DNA of 64,000 nt from a virus, in IMG/VR virus record IMGVR_UViG_3300031825_000007, positions 1,060 through 65,059 of that record; one strand, written 5' to 3'. Below the pieces are notes generated by a model. That model searched no databases and had not been told where the DNA came from. It saw nothing but the letters and a program-made list of their open reading frames with translations. Both the position numbers and the translations under genes were made by a program. Shown in pieces: positions 50,627-64,000 of this stretch (positions are counted from its first letter, which is position 1; the number at the start of each line of letters is the position of its first letter).

Positions 50627-51877
50627 ATGGAATCACCTGAAATGGAAGTGCTGGACGCAGATCCGGCAGAGTCGGCTACCACCCTCGCCTTGTACGACCC
50701 CGTCGAGGCCGGGCTCGCCAAGCTGCGGGAGGAAGGCGCCGAAGCCTTCGACGTGAAGACGACCGAAGGCAACAAGGCGGCGCGCGAGTTCGTGCAGCGT
50801 TGCGTCGGCACGCGCACCGCAACCGAGGAAGCGTACACGAACTGGAATCGCCCGCTGATGGCGCTCCAGAAACAGGCCCGCGAGAAACGCGACGAGATCG
50901 TGGCGTCGGTGAAGGCCATCGAGCAACCCGTCAAGGATCTGGTCGATGCCGAGCAGAAGCGCAAGGACGAGGAACGTATCGAGAAGGCGCGCATCGAGAG
51001 CGCGCGCATCTCAGCCCACCAAGCGTGCCTGAACGCGATCATCAACCTGCCGAAGGACTATCTCAGCGCGAGCGTGGCCGATGTCGCCGCCGCGATCCGT
51101 GACCTGGAATCGCCGAAGTATCTCGGCCAGCGCGACTGGCAGGAATACACCGACCAAGCCAAGGAAGCGGTCGAGGGCGCCCTGACAACGATCCGCGCCC
51201 ATCTGGAAAACGCCAAGGCACGCGAAGAACTGGCGGCAATGCGTGCCCAACAACAGGCGGAGGCTGCCGCGCAGCAAGCCCAGGCGGAGGCGGCCGAAGC
51301 CGAGCGGCAGCGTATTACCGGCATCAAGGACCGCATCCACGCCATCGAGACGGCGGTATCGACGTGCATCGGGCTGGGCGTGAAGCAAATCCAGCAACGC
51401 ATCGATTCGCTGGCCCGCGAGGCGGCAGACGATTTCGGCGAGTTTCAGGCCGATGCCGGTGCCGCCATCGAGGCAGCGCTGGGCAACCTGAATGCGATGC
51501 TCGATACCGCGCGCGATGCGGAAGAACTGCAACAACTGCGTGCGGACCGGGAGAAGCGGGAACGCGAGGCCAAGGAAGCCGCCGAGGCTGCTGCCCGGGC
51601 CGCCGAGCAGGCCGAAGCGAAGCGCATTGCCGACGAGAAGGCGGCCGAAGCGCGCCGACAAGCGGAAGCCCGCGCCGCCGAGGAACAGCGCCAGCGCGAG
51701 GAAGCCGCTGCTCGCCGCCGCGAGCAAGAAGCCGCAGAGAAAGCCGCCCGGCGCGTGCGGGAGCAGGCCGGCACGTTGCTGGCCCTGCTGGTCGAAGCCC
51801 GCCCTCACATCCCGGCCGGAGATCTGGCTGACCGCATCGACGCCACGATCAATGCAGCCACCGGGAGCACAGCATGA
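50627..51877 (+). CDS. Long coiled-coil protein upstream of the SSAP, 416 aa
   Basis: GAGG SD; Ala/Glu/Arg heptads. Confidence 0.75.
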   Translation: MESPEMEVLDADPAESATTLALYDPVEAGLAKLREEGAEAFDVKTTEGNKAAREFVQRCVGTRTATEEAYTNWNRPLMALQKQAREKRDEIVASVKAIEQPVKDLVDAEQKRKDEERIEKARIESARISAHQACLNAIINLPKDYLSASVADVAAAIRDLESPKYLGQRDWQEYTDQAKEAVEGALTTIRAHLENAKAREELAAMRAQQQAEAAAQQAQAEAAEAERQRITGIKDRIHAIETAVSTCIGLGVKQIQQRIDSLAREAADDFGEFQADAGAAIEAALGNLNAMLDTARDAEELQQLRADREKREREAKEAAEAAARAAEQAEAKRIADEKAAEARRQAEARAAEEQRQREEAAARRREQEAAEKAARRVREQAGTLLALLVEARPHIPAGDLADRIDATINAATGSTA

Positions 51878-52536
51878 GCAACCACGAGCAATTCGCCGCG
51901 CAGGCCGTGCAGCAAATGGATGTGAACCTCATCCCCGGGCCGGCGCCGGAAAGCCTCGGGCAACTGTTCGAGGCGCTGGCCACCGCACAGGGGGAATTTC
52001 CTCCCATCGCGAAGAACCGCACTGGACACATCCGTCCGAAAGACCCGGGCAAGGCTCCGTATAGCTTCGACTACTCCGATATGCAGGAGATTCGGGACAA
52101 GACGACCCCCGCCCTTTCGAAGCATGCGCTGGCGCTTATACAGATCGTCACCGATAGGCCGACAGGCGGAACGCACATCCGCACGATCATTGCCCACAAG
52201 TCTGCGGCGCGCGTGGAGTCCTCCCTGAGCATTGCGCGCGGCGATGCGGACATCAAAATCTTCGGCGCATCGATCACGATCCTGCGGCGCTACATCGTGA
52301 CGGCGTTGCTGAATGTGGCGGGAGACGCGGATCTGGATGAAAGCAGCGACCCGGATGTCGGCGCCGGTCTTTCACCCGTGGCTGCCGATGTGCACCCCGG
52401 CATGCGCGATGCCAAGACCATCGGTGAACTCAGCAAGATCATGAGCGCCTTGAGCAAGGAGGAAAAGGCCAAGTACGCCGACTACTTCAACCAGCGCATG
52501 CAGGAACTGCGCCCGGCTTCGCAGGAGGTAGCGTGA
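51874..52536 (+). CDS. erf: ERF-family single-strand annealing protein, 220 aa
   Basis: ALATAQGEF...YSFDYSD...GLALIQ-like segment, FGASITILRRY...ALLNVAGDADLD. Confidence 0.85.
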   Translation: MSNHEQFAAQAVQQMDVNLIPGPAPESLGQLFEALATAQGEFPPIAKNRTGHIRPKDPGKAPYSFDYSDMQEIRDKTTPALSKHALALIQIVTDRPTGGTHIRTIIAHKSAARVESSLSIARGDADIKIFGASITILRRYIVTALLNVAGDADLDESSDPDVGAGLSPVAADVHPGMRDAKTIGELSKIMSALSKEEKAKYADYFNQRMQELRPASQEVA

Positions 52537-52985
52537 ACGAAGATCAAAGGCAAGTGAGCGCGCCGCCCGCATCGCCTGCCGCGCTGACGGATGAGCAACG
52601 CGAGAAGGTATGCGAAGCCGTGGCTGATGCCTTGGGCGGTGCTTACGATTGCATGCGCGTGTGGTCAGCGTGGGGCGCAGGCACGATGGGCTCCGATGAT
52701 TTTGCGCTGGTCGCGGAAGATGACAGTCGCGTGGCGGAAATTGCTGACGCCGCAATTGCGGCCACCCTCGCCACATCGTCCGTCGCCGCGGTGCCTGCCG
52801 CCCCGCAACCGAGCGCCAAGGCGCTGACGGATGAGCAGATCATCGAAACCTACCTGCACGAAGCGGGCAAGGTAATCGTGCGCTGCGCTCATGAACGCGG
52901 GGACTTCGCCCCACTCATAGCCACGGTCCGCGCCCTCCTGGCCGCAGAGCAGCCCAGCGGGGACAAGCGCGAGGTGCAATCGTGA
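52533..52985 (+). CDS. Modular hypothetical protein, 150 aa
   Basis: GGAGG SD, GTG start; two ALTDEQ modules. Confidence 0.65.
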   Translation: MNEDQRQVSAPPASPAALTDEQREKVCEAVADALGGAYDCMRVWSAWGAGTMGSDDFALVAEDDSRVAEIADAAIAATLATSSVAAVPAAPQPSAKALTDEQIIETYLHEAGKVIVRCAHERGDFAPLIATVRALLAAEQPSGDKREVQS

Positions 52986-53614
52986 TCGTCGTTACCTGTC
53001 AGCAGGGCAGCGATCAATGGCTGCAAGCCCGTGCCGGTGTGACCACCGCCAGCAACTTCCGCATCGCCCGCTCCCGTAAGCGTGCTGGCGGCGACTGGTC
53101 CGACACCGCCCTCAAACTCGCCTTCGGCACCGCCATCGAGCGCATCAGCGGTGCCCCGCTCAATGAGGGTCACGAGACATGGCAGATGCGTCGCGGCCAC
53201 GAACTCGAACCCGATGCGCGCATCGCCCACCAAGCCGACATCGGCGTCTACGTGCAGCCGGTCGGCATGGTCTTGTCCGATGACCGAGCCTTCGGGGCAA
53301 GCGCGGACGGCTGGATCGGCAAGGACGGCGGTGCCGAGTACAAGTGCCTCATCTCCCCTGACGAGCTGCGCACGACGCTGATCGATCACGACCTGGAGAA
53401 GTACACGGACCAGGTGCAAGGGAATCTCTGGCTCTCCGGCCGTAAGTGGTGGGACTTCTGCATCTACTGCCCCGCCCTCAAGTCCGTGAAGGAATTCTTC
53501 CGCTGGCGCATCGAGCGTGACGACGACTACATCGAGGCGATGGTTGCTGACCTGTGGGAATTCGAAAAGCTGGTGCAGTCCAACGTTGCCGCATTGCGCA
53601 AGCTGGCGGCCTGA
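52982..53614 (+). CDS. YqaJ/lambda-exonuclease-family protein, 210 aa
   Basis: QGSDQWLQARAG, GHELEP, ASADG, EYKC, QVQGNLW. Confidence 0.92.
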   Translation: MIVVTCQQGSDQWLQARAGVTTASNFRIARSRKRAGGDWSDTALKLAFGTAIERISGAPLNEGHETWQMRRGHELEPDARIAHQADIGVYVQPVGMVLSDDRAFGASADGWIGKDGGAEYKCLISPDELRTTLIDHDLEKYTDQVQGNLWLSGRKWWDFCIYCPALKSVKEFFRWRIERDDDYIEAMVADLWEFEKLVQSNVAALRKLAA

Positions 53615-56915: not shown

Positions 56916-58046
56916 ATGCTCGCCCGCAACGCCACCATCTTCACCTTCTCGGGCATTACGCCAGAATCCATCGACGCGGCCATGCAGCGCCGCCAGTTCC
57001 TGCCTTGCGGCGCGGCCGAGGCTTCGAGCAGGGGCTTCATTCCTCCCATCGATGGCGCGCCCGATCTGACGCGGCACGTCGGCGGCGTGACGGCCATCGC
57101 CATGCGCGAGGACGACAAAATCCTGCCGGCGTGCGTCGTCCAGGCCGAGGTCAAGCGCCGCGCCGACGAGTTGGAAGAGCAACAGGGATTCCGGCCCGGC
57201 CGCAAGCAAACGCGCGAGCTGAAGGAGGCCGTCACCGACGACCTGCTCACCAAGGCATTCGTGCGAACGACCGTCGTGCGCGCGTGGCTCGACTTCAACG
57301 CCGGCCTGCTGGTGATCGACGCTTCGAGCGAGTCGAAGGTGGACAACATGATCGGCGTGCTGCTGCGCAGCTTCTCCGAGGCGCCCACCCTGTCGCGCTG
57401 GCGCACCAAGGGCATTCCCACCCACCACTTCACGAACTGGATTCAGGCGGCCGAGGCGCCCGCCGGCTTCACTATCGACGACCGGGCACTACTCGCCAGC
57501 GCCGACGGCGGGAAGATTCGCCTGGTCAACCAGAGCATGGACGATGCCGAGGTGCGCAAGCTGGTTGAGAAGGGCCGCACCTGCGCCGAGCTGGCGATGA
57601 CCTACGACGACAAGCTCTCGTTCGTGCTGACCCACAACCTAGTGCTGCGCCGCATCGCACACACCGGCATCAACGAAGAGCGCAACCCGATCCAGCAGGA
57701 CATGCTGGAGGAAGAGCGCCGCGATGCTGAAATCGTGCTGAATGCCGGCGCGATCCGCGAAGCCTTCGCCGCCGTCAACGAAGTCATAGGCGGTCTGGCC
57801 GAGAACGAGGAACCGGCCGGCACGTCGATTTCCACGGTCGGCGCCGAGGACGACCCGCTGTACGAGCAGGCCCGCAAGATCGTCGTCGCCAACGGCCGCG
57901 CGTCGATTTCCCTGGTGCAGCGCCACCTGCGCATCGGCTACAACCGCGCCGCGCGACTGCTGGAGAACCTGGAGCACTCTCGCGTGGTGAGCCCGATGGA
58001 CAACACCGGCTCGCGTCGCGTGCTCGTTTCGGCCGCCGAGGCGTAA
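56916..58046 (+). CDS. rdgC: RdgC-family protein fused to an FtsK gamma domain, 376 aa
   Basis: F.PCG...[23 protein letters not shown]; C-terminal DPLYEQA...[20 protein letters not shown]. Confidence 0.9.
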
Positions 58047-58904: not shown

Positions 58905-59465
58905 ATGAGCGGAAAGAGCTGGACGGAGGAGGAGGATGCCGCGCTGTGCGACGTATGGGACTTGCCCACCTCGCTCAAGGTGCATCTGCACCTGTTCCCG
59001 GATCGCACCTACCGCGCGGTGATCTGCCACGGCTGGGAACTGGGCCTGAGCAAGCGGGACATGAAGACCTATCCGCACTACTCGCCGGTCTGGGACGCGC
59101 TCTCGCGTGTCATGCGCGAGCACGATGCCCCGGCGTCGGCCAAGGAGCTGTCCCACATCAGCGGCATCCCGCTGCGCTCAATCATGACGCAGCTCAAGAG
59201 TCATCGCGGCACCGATTGCTACGTGGCCCAGTACATGAAGGTCGGTAAGCGCGGCGTGGTGATGGCGCGCTGGCGCCTCGGCAACCAGCCGGACGCACCT
59301 TGGCCGGCGCGCACCCCCACATCGGTCCTCAACAAGCGCGCGTACAAAGCGTTGAAGGAGAACCGGCCCGACCTGCTCGCTGCGCGCCTGGCCCGGCAGC
59401 GCCTCCGCTACGCCGAGAAGACGGGCAAGCTGATCCGCCGCGATCCGGCTGCGGCCTGGTTCTGA
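58905..59465 (+). CDS. Putative DNA-binding protein (Myb-like/wHTH), 186 aa
   Basis: WTEEEDAAL; SAKELSHISG; basic C-terminus. Confidence 0.65.
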   Translation: MSGKSWTEEEDAALCDVWDLPTSLKVHLHLFPDRTYRAVICHGWELGLSKRDMKTYPHYSPVWDALSRVMREHDAPASAKELSHISGIPLRSIMTQLKSHRGTDCYVAQYMKVGKRGVVMARWRLGNQPDAPWPARTPTSVLNKRAYKALKENRPDLLAARLARQRLRYAEKTGKLIRRDPAAAWF

Positions 59466-59475
59466 GGGTGGCGAC

Positions 59476-59679
59476 ATGCCCATCGAGCGCCCGCGCCAAT
59501 TCGCCAGCAAGCCCCAGTACGGCATGCCGCTGGGCCCTGCGGATGTGGATGTCGTTCGAGCCGATCTGGCGGTGCTGCGCGACGAGACGATGAACCTGCG
59601 GGCCGACTGTGCCCGCGACCTGGTGCAGACCACCCAGGTCCGCATCGAACTGGACAACGCCGCCGACCGCGCGGCCTGA
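59476..59679 (+). CDS. Hypothetical protein, 67 aa
   Basis: GAGG SD. Confidence 0.55.
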   Translation: MPIERPRQFASKPQYGMPLGPADVDVVRADLAVLRDETMNLRADCARDLVQTTQVRIELDNAADRAA

Positions 59680-59698
59680 CATCCCACCACCACACATC

Positions 59699-61423
59699 AT
59701 GAACAACAAGACGACTTTCAGCCGTTTCACGATCATCGCGCGCGCCATCATCGACGCCTACAAGGAGCACTACGACTTCCCCACGCAGGGCGAGTCACAC
59801 ATGCAGGACTGCATTGTGAGCGAGTTGGAAAAGCTCTGGCCCGCGATGTGCAAGGGCCTGAACTGTGGCTGCACTGATGGCCGCAGCCATTCTCCCGAGT
59901 GCGATGCACAGCATGCCGCAGTCATTGCTGGAGGCACGTTCTTGAGCGATGCGCCAGCCGCGCCTCAGGTTGGTGAAAGCGTCTTGCGCGAGGCGTCGCG
60001 CTGGCTGCACGCCGCGTATGACCGTCCGCCACAGACGCCCGACTGCGCTGCGATGCTGGCCTTGGTTGATGCCGCGCTCGCAGCGCAATCGGCGCCGCGA
60101 GCCGGAGAGGATGTGCGGCCCACAGGTACGCTCGTTGGGCCGGGGGGCGGCTGGATCATCAACCCCGACGCCGCACAGGCAGCGCCGCAGGCCCAGCCGA
60201 GCGACACCGCTGGCCATGCACTGGCCTCCTTGGTCGCCTACTTGAGGGAAGAGGCGGATTTCAATCGCTCTTGGACCGACGGCCGGCGCGGCGATCTCGT
60301 GCCGGGTGAAGAATATGCCAAGCGGCGACTCGAACTTGCGCAGCGCGCCGACGACTGGGCGGATGCGGTCGAACGGCTGTCCCGCTACGGTGCCGCGCCG
60401 CAATATCACGACAGCACGCTGGGCCCGCACGTCGGCAATTCTTCGTTCGAGTCCTGGTTCAGCGACTACGACCCAGCCGGCAAGGGCGACAAGCAGCGTG
60501 CCCGGGATGCCTACGCTGCCGGCAGAAAGGATACCAAGCGTTTCGCCGTGCCCCAGGCCCAGCCGAGCGACGAGGAAATCGACGCCATCTGGAAAGAAGG
60601 CGCGCTGCGCACGGATTTGGAGCCATCCACCCGTGGCGTGTTCCGATGGGCTGCTCGCGCCCTGCTGTTGCGCTACGCTGCCGCGCCGCAGATCGGTGAC
60701 GACGAAACCAGCATCTGGCCCATCGTCAATGTGACCGTGGACGCCCAGGGAAATATCACCGAGGCGAAGTGCTATGCCCCCGGCCTGCCGCCTGGGAACC
60801 ATGATGTCTATCCCGTGCGCGTGCCCTACATGGACGAGCACACCGAGGCATGGCATGCGGTGTTCAACGCCCTGCTCGAAGTGGCGCCGGATGTCATGGG
60901 CGGCCACGGGAATGGCATCGAGTGCGCGGTGCGCGCCATCAAGCATCTGGCCGAACGGTCCGCGCCGCAGGCCGGAGAGGATCAACTTCCCCTGGTGCCG
61001 AGCGCCTATGTTGACGGCGCCTACATAGGCTACAGCAAGAGCGATCTTCAGGCGTATGCCCGAGCAGCACTTGCGATGCGGGCCGGAGAGGATGCGCAGC
61101 CGGTCCCGGCTTTCTATGTCTGCGATGCGGATGTCGCTCGTCTGGCAGACCGCCGTTTGGCTGGCAAAGTAGTCATGCTGAACAAGGAAGCTGGCCCGGG
61201 CATGACAGCCTACTACGCTATCCCGCAGCCAGTAGCCCAGGCTGTGCCGGCCGTGCCGGAAAGCGCGCGCTGCAAGGAACTGACCGATGCTGAAATCGAG
61301 CGCGGCTGGCACGCCACATTCAGCACCAGCAACCCGTACTGCCCGTGCAATCTCAAGTCGTTCACCAAGGCCGTGCGCTGGGCCGTGGCCGCGCTCACCA
61401 CCCAAGGAGCGAGCCATGATTGA
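59699..61423 (+). CDS. Mosaic multi-module hypothetical protein, 574 aa
   Basis: Unrelated segments separated by repeated AAPQ(A/V/I)G(E/D) and PQAQPSD linkers. Confidence 0.7.
   Translation: MNNKTTFSRFTIIARAIIDAYKEHYDFPTQGESHMQDCIVSELEKLWPAMCKGLNCGCTDGRSHSPECDAQHAAVIAGGTFLSDAPAAPQVGESVLREASRWLHAAYDRPPQTPDCAAMLALVDAALAAQSAPRAGEDVRPTGTLVGPGGGWIINPDAAQAAPQAQPSDTAGHALASLVAYLREEADFNRSWTDGRRGDLVPGEEYAKRRLELAQRADDWADAVERLSRYGAAPQYHDSTLGPHVGNSSFESWFSDYDPAGKGDKQRARDAYAAGRKDTKRFAVPQAQPSDEEIDAIWKEGALRTDLEPSTRGVFRWAARALLLRYAAAPQIGDDETSIWPIVNVTVDAQGNITEAKCYAPGLPPGNHDVYPVRVPYMDEHTEAWHAVFNALLEVAPDVMGGHGNGIECAVRAIKHLAERSAPQAGEDQLPLVPSAYVDGAYIGYSKSDLQAYARAALAMRAGEDAQPVPAFYVCDADVARLADRRLAGKVVMLNKEAGPGMTAYYAIPQPVAQAVPAVPESARCKELTDAEIERGWHATFSTSNPYCPCNLKSFTKAVRWAVAALTTQGASHD
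60092..61093 (+). repeat. Dispersed in-frame linker repeats
   Basis: GCCGGAGAGGAT exact at 60101, 60971, 61082; CAGGCCCAGCCGAGCGAC exact at 60188 and 60554. Confidence 0.85.
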
Positions 61424-61880
61424 GCTGCGCCCTGTGACGCGGGACGTGGCCGACGACTACATCCGCAGACACCACCGCCACCACGGGGTGCCGGTGGGCG
61501 CCCTGTGGCGCCAAGCGGTCCACGATGACACCGGGCGCCTGGTCGGTGTGGCCGTGTCCGGCCGGCCTGTGGCTCGTGCTCTCGATGACGGCCTGACCGT
61601 CGAAGTGACCCGCCTCTGCACGGATGGCACGCCGAACGCATGCAGCATGCTCTACGCCGCCGCGCGTCGAGTTGCGCAAGACAAAGGCTACCGGCGCGGC
61701 CTGACCTACATCCTGGAGACCGAGGACGGCGCCAGCCTGCGCGCCGCCGGCTGGCGGCTCCTGTGGCACGTCAAGGGTCGCAGTTGGGACTGTCCTAGCC
61801 GGCCGCGCACCGACAAACACCCGACAGACGACAAGCAGGCATGGGGATGGGGTTCCTGGCCTGCGGCGGAAGCAAGCTGA
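61416..61880 (+). CDS. XF1762-family protein (Mom-like GNAT fold), 154 aa
   Basis: RHHRHH...LVGVAVSGRPVARALDDG..EVTRLCTDGTPNACSMLY...TYILETEDGASLRAAGW. Confidence 0.8.
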   Translation: MIELRPVTRDVADDYIRRHHRHHGVPVGALWRQAVHDDTGRLVGVAVSGRPVARALDDGLTVEVTRLCTDGTPNACSMLYAAARRVAQDKGYRRGLTYILETEDGASLRAAGWRLLWHVKGRSWDCPSRPRTDKHPTDDKQAWGWGSWPAAEAS

Positions 61881-61912
61881 GGGGACTTTAACTTCCACGA
61901 TCCAATCACACC

Positions 61913-63363: not shown

Positions 63364-63644
63364 CGAAACCCTACCTCGATGCGCTGGGCCGGCCCGACCC
63401 CGCGCTGACCGAGCACGAGCTGATGCGCACTGCCCGGGATGCCGCTGATCGCCTGCATGCGCTGGTCCATCAGCTCCGCTACGTGCACGGCAATGCCGAG
63501 ATGGAGCGCGACGCTGCGCCGGTGCTGCGCGGGCTGGAAGCCCAGGTGAACGCGCTCCAGCAGGAACTCATCACCCACCGCGCCCGGGCTGCGCACCGCG
63601 CCCGCGTCGAATACGACCGCCTGATGCGAGGGCCGCTGCTATGA
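63360..63644 (+). CDS. Hypothetical coiled-coil protein, 94 aa
   Basis: ATGA overlaps at both ends. Confidence 0.6.
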   Translation: MTKPYLDALGRPDPALTEHELMRTARDAADRLHALVHQLRYVHGNAEMERDAAPVLRGLEAQVNALQQELITHRARAAHRARVEYDRLMRGPLL

Positions 63645-64000
63645 CCGAGCACAGCCAACCGATTGCATGGGTGCATGAGGAAGACCCATCGCGTGCAATC
63701 TCCGCATTGCAGAAGACCGGCATGCTGCGAGGTGGTGGTGCCGGCGCTTCGTCGGTCCGCCCTTACTCAATCGCTGCATTTGGGCATGCCGCCCCGCAAT
63801 CGGGTGCCAAGGTGCTCACGGAGGAAGAAATCCACACCTTGGCGCTGCGCGCAGCAAACGCTGCTGCCACCGCAGGCGGCGATAGGCTCGATGCCGCCCT
63901 TATAGCCATCCGCACCCTCCTGGCTATAGAGCAGCCCATCGCAGCATCGGCGCGACTCAATCCGGCGCTAGTGGCTGATGACCAGCTCCTTGTCATCGCA
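63641..64000 (+). CDS. Modular hypothetical protein, truncated by the window edge
   Basis: Hand translation MTEHSQPIAWVHEED...AAPQSGAKVLTEEEI...IRTLLAIEQP; open to base 64000. Confidence 0.65.
   Translation, partial: MTEHSQPIAWVHEEDPSRAISALQKTGMLRGGGAGASSVRPYSIAAFGHAAPQSGAKVLTEEEIHTLALRAANAAATAGGDRLDAALIAIRTLLAIEQPIAASARLNPALVADDQLLVIA

Follow-up and report, generated by a model that had tools for sequence, protein, structure and literature searches.

A boundary ('linker') sequence model has been outlined for the mosaicism of lambdoid phages (Susskind and Botstein, 1978; Clark et al., 2001; summarised in PMC3233612), and the old question whether mosaics are made at short conserved homologies, or by joins at random that selection then filters, is still open (PMC3233612). 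Traces of homology are often found at mosaic borders, and the Rad52-like phage recombinases Erf, RecT and Red-beta drive temperate and defective phages to exchange small fragments of genes (PMC3945230). These three proteins behave alike on diverged repeats, which the Erf/Exo system of phage D3 recombines as well as lambda Red does; the repeats tested were far longer than the linkers described below, e.g. 700 bp in one assay (PMC3945230). In T4-type phages, PeSL cassettes, which combine a promoter and a stem-loop and move whole genes, are repeated short elements that mediate the insertion, deletion and replacement of accessory modules (PMC2839356). Exchangeable portable domains also characterize the mosaic early-arm accessory proteins of the Ea22/DUF551 type in lambda and Stx phages (PMC10834534), and polyvalent proteins carry 2-15 disparate domains per polypeptide in variable architecture (Iyer et al., 2017, PMC5512222). 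The gene described here is likely to be one of a family of early accessory genes in phages of the Cupriavidus type, in which conserved modules of 20-100 aa are strung on a few coding DNA linkers.

The modular gene and its surroundings

The window is a 64-kb stretch of DNA held in a virus record of 68,995 bp that is 79% complete. Its rightward arm of small genes encodes ERF, YqaJ, a dATP/dGTP pyrophosphohydrolase, DUF4406, RdgC and a Mom-like protein. The ERF and 416-aa proteins of this arm fall into 90% clusters with Cupriavidus basilensis proteins, and a Cupriavidus genome contains an integrated prophage with a closely related arm (87-96% nucleotide identity over the ERF-YqaJ region). These two observations point to Cupriavidus as the probable host of this soil phage (sequencing runs with small word shares were set aside in assigning the habitat). 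A search for an integrase (PF00589) in the 79%-complete record gave no match. In the same arm, the RdgC at 56916-58046 has an FtsK-gamma domain fused to its C-terminus, and a weak DUF551 gene lies just outside the window. The early arm of a close relative encodes a 226-aa protein with a six-residue tandem repeat (L100:7279-7959).

The ORF at 59699-61423 is translated without a stop into 574 aa, and all nine linker peptides named in the preliminary description are present in it. They are rich in Ala, Pro and Gln and lie at aa 85, 131, 161, 231, 283, 327, 421, 460 and 509. The same description had counted about nine segments between them; the linkers were found as described, and the segments they delimit are ten. 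The features are as follows.

51874-52536, + strand: ERF single-strand annealing protein (PF04404, E 2e-11), a candidate catalyst, not a specific one
52533-52985, + strand: second modular gene, with linker set B (PQPSAKALTD ... ALLAAEQPS)
52982-53614, + strand: YqaJ-type exonuclease (PF09588, E 6e-12)
59699-61423, + strand: modular ORF P0001, with ten modules M1-M10, no Pfam or PHROG match and no full-length homologue
59699-59950, + strand: M1, probably two sub-modules; aa 16-44 common to L005 and L006
59951-59977, + strand: linker 1, APAAPQVGE; the homology with L007 begins at 59960
59978-60088, + strand: M2, common to the Cupriavidus prophage gene L007/P0002 (87% nt)
60089-60112, + strand: linker 2, SAPRAGED; 12-bp repeat, copy 1
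60113-60178, + strand: M3, common to L019, L104 and L120 (89-91% nt)
60179-60205, + strand: linker 3, AAPQAQPSD; 18-bp repeat, copy 1
60206-60388, + strand: M4, also found in 65-95 aa proteins made mostly of M4
60376-60403, + strand: linker 4, (LSRY)GAAPQ; 27-33 bp common to unrelated genes
60404-60544, + strand: M5, the final 21 bp from another module; crossover just 5' of the linker
60545-60571, + strand: linker 5, AVPQAQPSD; 18-bp repeat, copy 2
60572-60676, + strand: M6, shared with L002 (92% nt) and with L103 of the C. basilensis cluster (80% nt)
60677-60703, + strand: linker 6, AAAPQIGDD
60704-60958, + strand: M7, modelled as a beta-hairpin and two helices; no fold match
60959-60982, + strand: linker 7, SAPQAGED; 12-bp repeat, copy 2
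60983-61075, + strand: M8, common to L010 (82% nt)
61076-61102, + strand: linker 8, MRAGEDAQP; 12-bp repeat, copy 3
61103-61222, + strand: M9, common to L001 and L019 (91-93% nt)
61213-61258, + strand: linker 9, PQPVAQAVPAVP; 37-46 bp shared, opening the slot of the terminal module
61259-61386, + strand: M10, the terminal module, with homologues in L007 (96% nt) and L012 (88% nt)
61387-61423, + strand: terminal boundary, AALTTQGASHD, with the next gene's Shine-Dalgarno sequence GGAG (61406-61409) and start codon ATG (61416)
61416-61880, + strand: Mom-like gene downstream of the modular ORF (phrog_1384, E 2.5e-35), overlapping the ORF end by 8 nt
63641-64000, + strand: third modular gene, with linker set B, running off the window; its first module is common to L019b

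The slot for a terminal module is bounded by the PQPAAQAAP linker on one side and the AALTTQGAS boundary on the other; where the window gene has M10, other terminal modules are present in L001, L019, L010, L120 and the isolate run X3. The boundary itself, with 26-33 bp common to genes that have different downstream genes, is by its sequence a swap point at the level of whole genes. Linker set B (APSASPA, PQPSAKALTD, ALLAAEQPS) builds more modular genes of the same phage outside the window (L011:13943-18252). In L104 a first half of set A is fused to a second half of set B, and single modules pass between the two sets. An internal translation start at GGAGAGG in the AGED linker was considered and dropped, the spacing to an in-frame start codon varying among copies (by eye).

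Exchange of modules among relatives

Two observations on relatives agree with the exchange proposed in the preliminary description: a full-length collinear homologue was absent from 1.84 billion cluster representatives, among which 862 proteins matched, and linker-bounded variants are abundant in relatives, isolates included. Nearly all of the best matches (146 of 149) cover a single module. Related phages and prophages, Cupriavidus isolates among them, have one to three modules in common with the window gene at 79-98% DNA identity; for the M4-M5 block compared with L001 the value is 98%. For each of M7, M10, M5 and M4, homologues occur by the dozen in proteins that are otherwise unrelated. 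The carriers of M7 include, by name, Ralstonia, Comamonas and Pigmentiphaga proteins, and those from Ralstonia and Comamonas have recurring linker words of their own at the peptide level (by eye). Scans of GTDB by protein and by linker pattern gave no match, and INPHARED yielded a marginal match of M5 in Burkholderia phages and nothing else.

The layouts of the relatives, in which B denotes a module absent from the window gene, are A-B-M2-x-y-M10 in the isolate L007, A'-B-M6-x-y in the isolate L103, A-B-M6-x-y-z in L002, A'-B-M4-M5-M9-x-W in L001, ..B..R-M3-Q-M9-W in L019 and ..R-M3-Q-U-T in L120; L010 has M8 and L012 has M10. The isolate run X3 contains B-M2 with a different terminal module between 61256 and 61387, and also B-M4, after which comes a second-set linker. 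At a single linker, one upstream module has three different partners: M2 in the isolate L007, M6 in the isolate L103 and in L002, and M4 in L001 and the isolate run X3. The modular gene of L007 is placed between exonuclease and integrase genes.

Among the internal ends of module-sized DNA matches, 15 of 28 fall inside linkers compared with 13.4% expected, and 17 of 28 lie within 6 nt of a linker compared with 19.8% expected, counts to be read with the tendency of local alignments to extend into a shared linker and then stop. For loci outside the presumed source sample series, 9 of 16 ends are within 6 nt of a linker (19.8% expected, P=0.0014; the ends and the sequence pairs are not fully independent statistically). 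All 60 segments shared among family genes are in frame. Junctions away from linkers occur in the M5 tail, in M1, and in M10 of L012 and L106; the M5 tail (window 60515-60545) was replaced from another module 21 nt ahead of the linker, through a microhomology of about 7 bp. Together these sequence comparisons make it probable that the linkers are standard joints at which protein parts are mixed between viruses.

Order is conserved along with this exchange. In 27 close family genes, 125 segments form 86 clusters, of which 24 are recurrent, and all but one of the recurrent modules (23/24) have more than one neighbour. Every module pair present in at least two of these genes (12/12) is always in the same order, and the graph of module order contains no cycle; a reversed order, M7 before M5, was found in one distant protein only. 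Two apparent inversions in a first clustering were an artefact of unsplit composite segments and disappeared under stricter clustering. The conserved order in the 12 shared pairs therefore indicates collinear gain, loss and replacement, not free permutation, and the expectation that the same modules would appear in different orders was not borne out.

Two further loci are of interest in their own right. In L012 (Logan SRR10754055, 6400-8500) an island of about 2 kb with 51-60% GC lies in a phage of about 30% GC that carries ribonucleotide reductase; the island contains a small DUF7167 gene flanked by two modular genes of the linker type, one of which ends in M10, and is an apparent cassette transfer into an unrelated phage. 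L001:3882-5592 contains a 245-aa ORF with an Avd-like N-terminus and the C-terminal half of a reverse transcriptase, after repeated candidate target genes. It lies immediately upstream of the modular gene and is probably the decayed remnant of a diversity-generating retroelement.

Possible origins of the joints

The reading that best fits these data, and which is held to be likely, is that crossovers between co-resident phages took place at coding linkers of 21-46 bp. Two phages, or a phage and a prophage, would share one cell; homologous recombination, the route suggested by the evolutionary traces, would pair linker copies of one kind (21-46 bp, 84-100% identical), and the stretch between paired linkers would be replaced, inserted or deleted. 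The reading frame would be kept because every linker copy has the same codon phase. Crossovers at linkers of the same type in collinear genes would also preserve the order of the modules, resulting in a loose grammar that runs from a start module through middle modules and one of the AGED type to a terminal module and a boundary with the ribosome-binding site of the next gene. Catalysis could be provided by any phage annealase (ERF, RecT) or by host RecA, in cis or in trans. The homology that matters would be mainly that of the 21-46 bp which different phages have in common, and less that of the exact 12-18 bp repeats within the gene.

The exact repeats reported earlier were confirmed in number and common phase: the 12-bp repeat GCCGGAGAGGAT is present at 60101, 60971 and 61082 and the 18-bp repeat CAGGCCCAGCCGAGCGAC at 60188 and 60554, and the codon phase is identical for all duplicated 12-mers of the ORF. 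There are 13 such 12-mers, compared with a mean of 0.35 under codon shuffling (P<0.0005) and 1.4 under synonymous resampling with the protein fixed (P=0.0005), and this count is the highest among the 1725-bp windows scanned in the 69-kb record. The excess over the protein-fixed value implies repetition at the DNA level, beyond that of the peptide. Linker-only matches between otherwise unrelated regions extend over 21-46 bp with 84-100% identity. Linker copies with unrelated flanks on both sides agree in their synonymous codons in 87% of pairs, whereas 38% is expected from the codon usage of the family, and the rare codon GGA is used in 9/9 AGED copies, none of them retrieved by the linker DNA pattern, against a background of 0.12. 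In shared module bodies the synonymous agreement has a median of 0.83, with 0.59-0.61 for M6 compared with L103 and M8 compared with L010 (0.61 for the latter). Judged by their silent sites, the linkers thus are homologous repeats with a uniformity at least that of the modules. Such uniformity is expected if recombinants inherit linkers at each crossover, and alone it is no proof of selection for evolvability; the identity of the linkers may reflect recent common descent instead of selection.

The silent sites also bear on the standard alternative model (PMC3233612), according to which illegitimate joins are random, protein-level selection retains those in flexible linkers, and linkers resemble each other by hitch-hiking with modules. 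An Ala/Pro/Gln-rich composition is as expected between domains, and the M5 tail provides one junction with microhomology inside modules. However, the same rare synonymous codons are kept in linker copies that have unrelated modules on both sides, and survival of random joints does not predict a silent-site likeness as high as, or higher than, that of homologous module bodies. Random joining is therefore regarded as rather unlikely.

ERF was found in the record of the window, which served as a positive control, and in the prophage L007, and its presence in this arm together with YqaJ was correctly noted before. In contrast, none of five other phages with linker genes, three of them complete, has an ERF match; two of the five have RecT, one YqaJ and one Exo VIII. 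Rad52, AAA_24 and the 270-aa protein of L010 had no matches in relatives, a result by which the absence of an annealase is not proven. In the complete 39-kb phage G003 (L122:2350-3800), Exo VIII is followed by an uncharacterised ORF at the position expected for an annealase; ERF, RecT, Rad52 and AAA_24 were all without a match there. As Erf, RecT and Red-beta show the same behaviour on diverged repeats, any annealase in the cell, or RecA, is a candidate. Phages with such genes differ in virion type as judged from their ORFs (by eye), and several phages with these modules were found together in one soil run. Separately, the window ERF and the unrelated 270-aa protein of L010 (2369-3181, phrog_10048), each encoded upstream of YqaJ, appear to share a C-terminal segment (by eye), possibly the outcome of a domain swap among annealing proteins.

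A library made by the phage's own ERF and YqaJ through deletion and reordering between intragenic repeats is improbable to a greater degree. It would fit the occurrence of both enzymes in the arm, as in L007, and the direct in-frame repeats within the gene; against it are the lack of any order inversion in close relatives, the five relatives without ERF, the shortness of the exact intragenic repeats (12-18 bp) and the joints seen in the sequencing runs, which match genes of other phages and not clean self-deletions. Deletions between repeats inside the gene, which had been anticipated, were not seen among the contigs, where rare ones could escape notice. What stands of the recombination-driven combinatorial library proposed in the preliminary description is exchange bounded by linkers and conservation of the linkers at the DNA level; reordering and a specific role of this ERF/YqaJ pair do not.

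A second assembly (an ENA contig, probably from the same reads) contains an identical gene. In the run that is the likely source, evenly deep unitigs (212-228x) span almost the whole gene, with 61109-61136 as the exception. The unitig over M1-M5 has three L001-type alleles, because of which the phasing across the 355-bp, 98%-identical M4-M5 block is uncertain. Stitching of co-occurring phages at repeats during assembly is the least probable of these origins, for although L001, L019 and L104 come from one metagenome sample, L001-type and L019-type junctions occur in the likely source run and the phasing of M4-M5 leaves some room for it, isolate genomes alone give alternative joins at one linker (L007 versus L103; run X3), even-depth unitigs cross the junctions of the window, and an AT-rich phage has M10 in a GC-rich island.

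Possible functions and relation to known systems

Purifying selection acts on the modules (dN/dS 0.18 over 443 codons, from pairs that are not independent), and an alignment of 42 M7 homologues has 18 invariant columns. Scans of P0001 against Pfam and PHROG, and of an M7 profile against PDB sequences, gave no match and no significant match, respectively. The single-sequence AlphaFold prediction of the whole protein (pLDDT 38) was unusable. The model of M7 (pLDDT 76, pTM 0.42) had a best Z of 4.6 and gave no BFVD match at E<0.001; a new fold is not thereby proven. Matches in the ESM Atlas were all below 0.9. Distant proteins with a shared module carry Lar, NADAR, DUF4406 or DUF551 domains, which suggests that modules may have host-modulating or counter-defence roles. 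The product would be a string of mini-domains interacting with host or phage components; a string of such host-modulating or counter-defence modules has about an even chance of being the right reading. More tentatively, and with doubt prevailing, the linker words might be selected as joints within an ordered grammar, by which dissimilar Cupriavidus phages draw at least 86 mini-modules from one pool into polyproteins, each module acting on a target of the host or of a rival phage, e.g. a defence system, and each betaproteobacterial host group having its own linker vocabulary. The finding explains a class of long 'hypothetical' prophage proteins without full-length homologues: their true units are small conserved modules under purifying selection, which are candidates for host-modulating and counter-defence screens.

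Two known sources of variation were considered and rejected. A diversity-generating retroelement is not indicated, PF00078 having no match in the 79%-complete record and the repeats being short linkers; neither is a shufflon or other site-specific inversion, the linkers being direct repeats on one strand and PF00589 having no match in the same record.

Like polyvalent proteins, P0001 combines many disparate domains in one polypeptide, in an architecture that varies among the family genes. Those proteins are mostly large, virion-injected or conjugative and enzyme-rich, whereas this is an early-arm gene with orphan modules of 20-100 aa; as far as gene context tells, its neighbours (ERF, YqaJ, RdgC, DUF4406, Mom-like) do not suggest a virion-packaged or conjugative setting. 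Enzymatic or LPD domains had no Pfam or PHROG match in P0001, the Lar, NADAR and DUF4406 domains belonging to the distant module-sharing proteins, and the word 'linker' is absent from the polyvalent-protein paper (PMC5512222). The likeness to Ea22-type proteins lies in the early-arm position and the portable domains. In contrast to these, the window gene has no constant core and every module is exchangeable; the Ead/Ea22 domain (PF13935) had no match in P0001 or the record, and linkers did not come up in a term search of the Ea22 paper (PMC10834534). PeSL cassettes likewise act through repeated short elements, but the window linkers are coding, and a sigma-70 promoter-like site was not found in 59400-61900, where one weak hairpin lies on the + strand at 61098 only. 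Relaxed recombination (PMC3945230) offers a plausible catalyst; recurring in-frame linker words are not described there, and no account of in-frame linker vocabularies in genes of this kind came up in a search of mostly open-access literature.

In the boundary-sequence model of lambdoid phages, as at this locus, exchanged modules are bordered by short conserved DNA, which in the model provides the points of homologous crossover. The terminal AALTTQGASHD segment corresponds to the model as a gene-border sequence, whereas the nine internal linkers are intragenic; most joints here are coding, in frame and inside one gene, and several linker types follow each other in a loose order with up to about ten modules per gene. 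As read from its evolutionary traces, the window gene is an intragenic version of that model, and since its joints are coding, synonymous recoding can separate the short-homology model from that of random joins.
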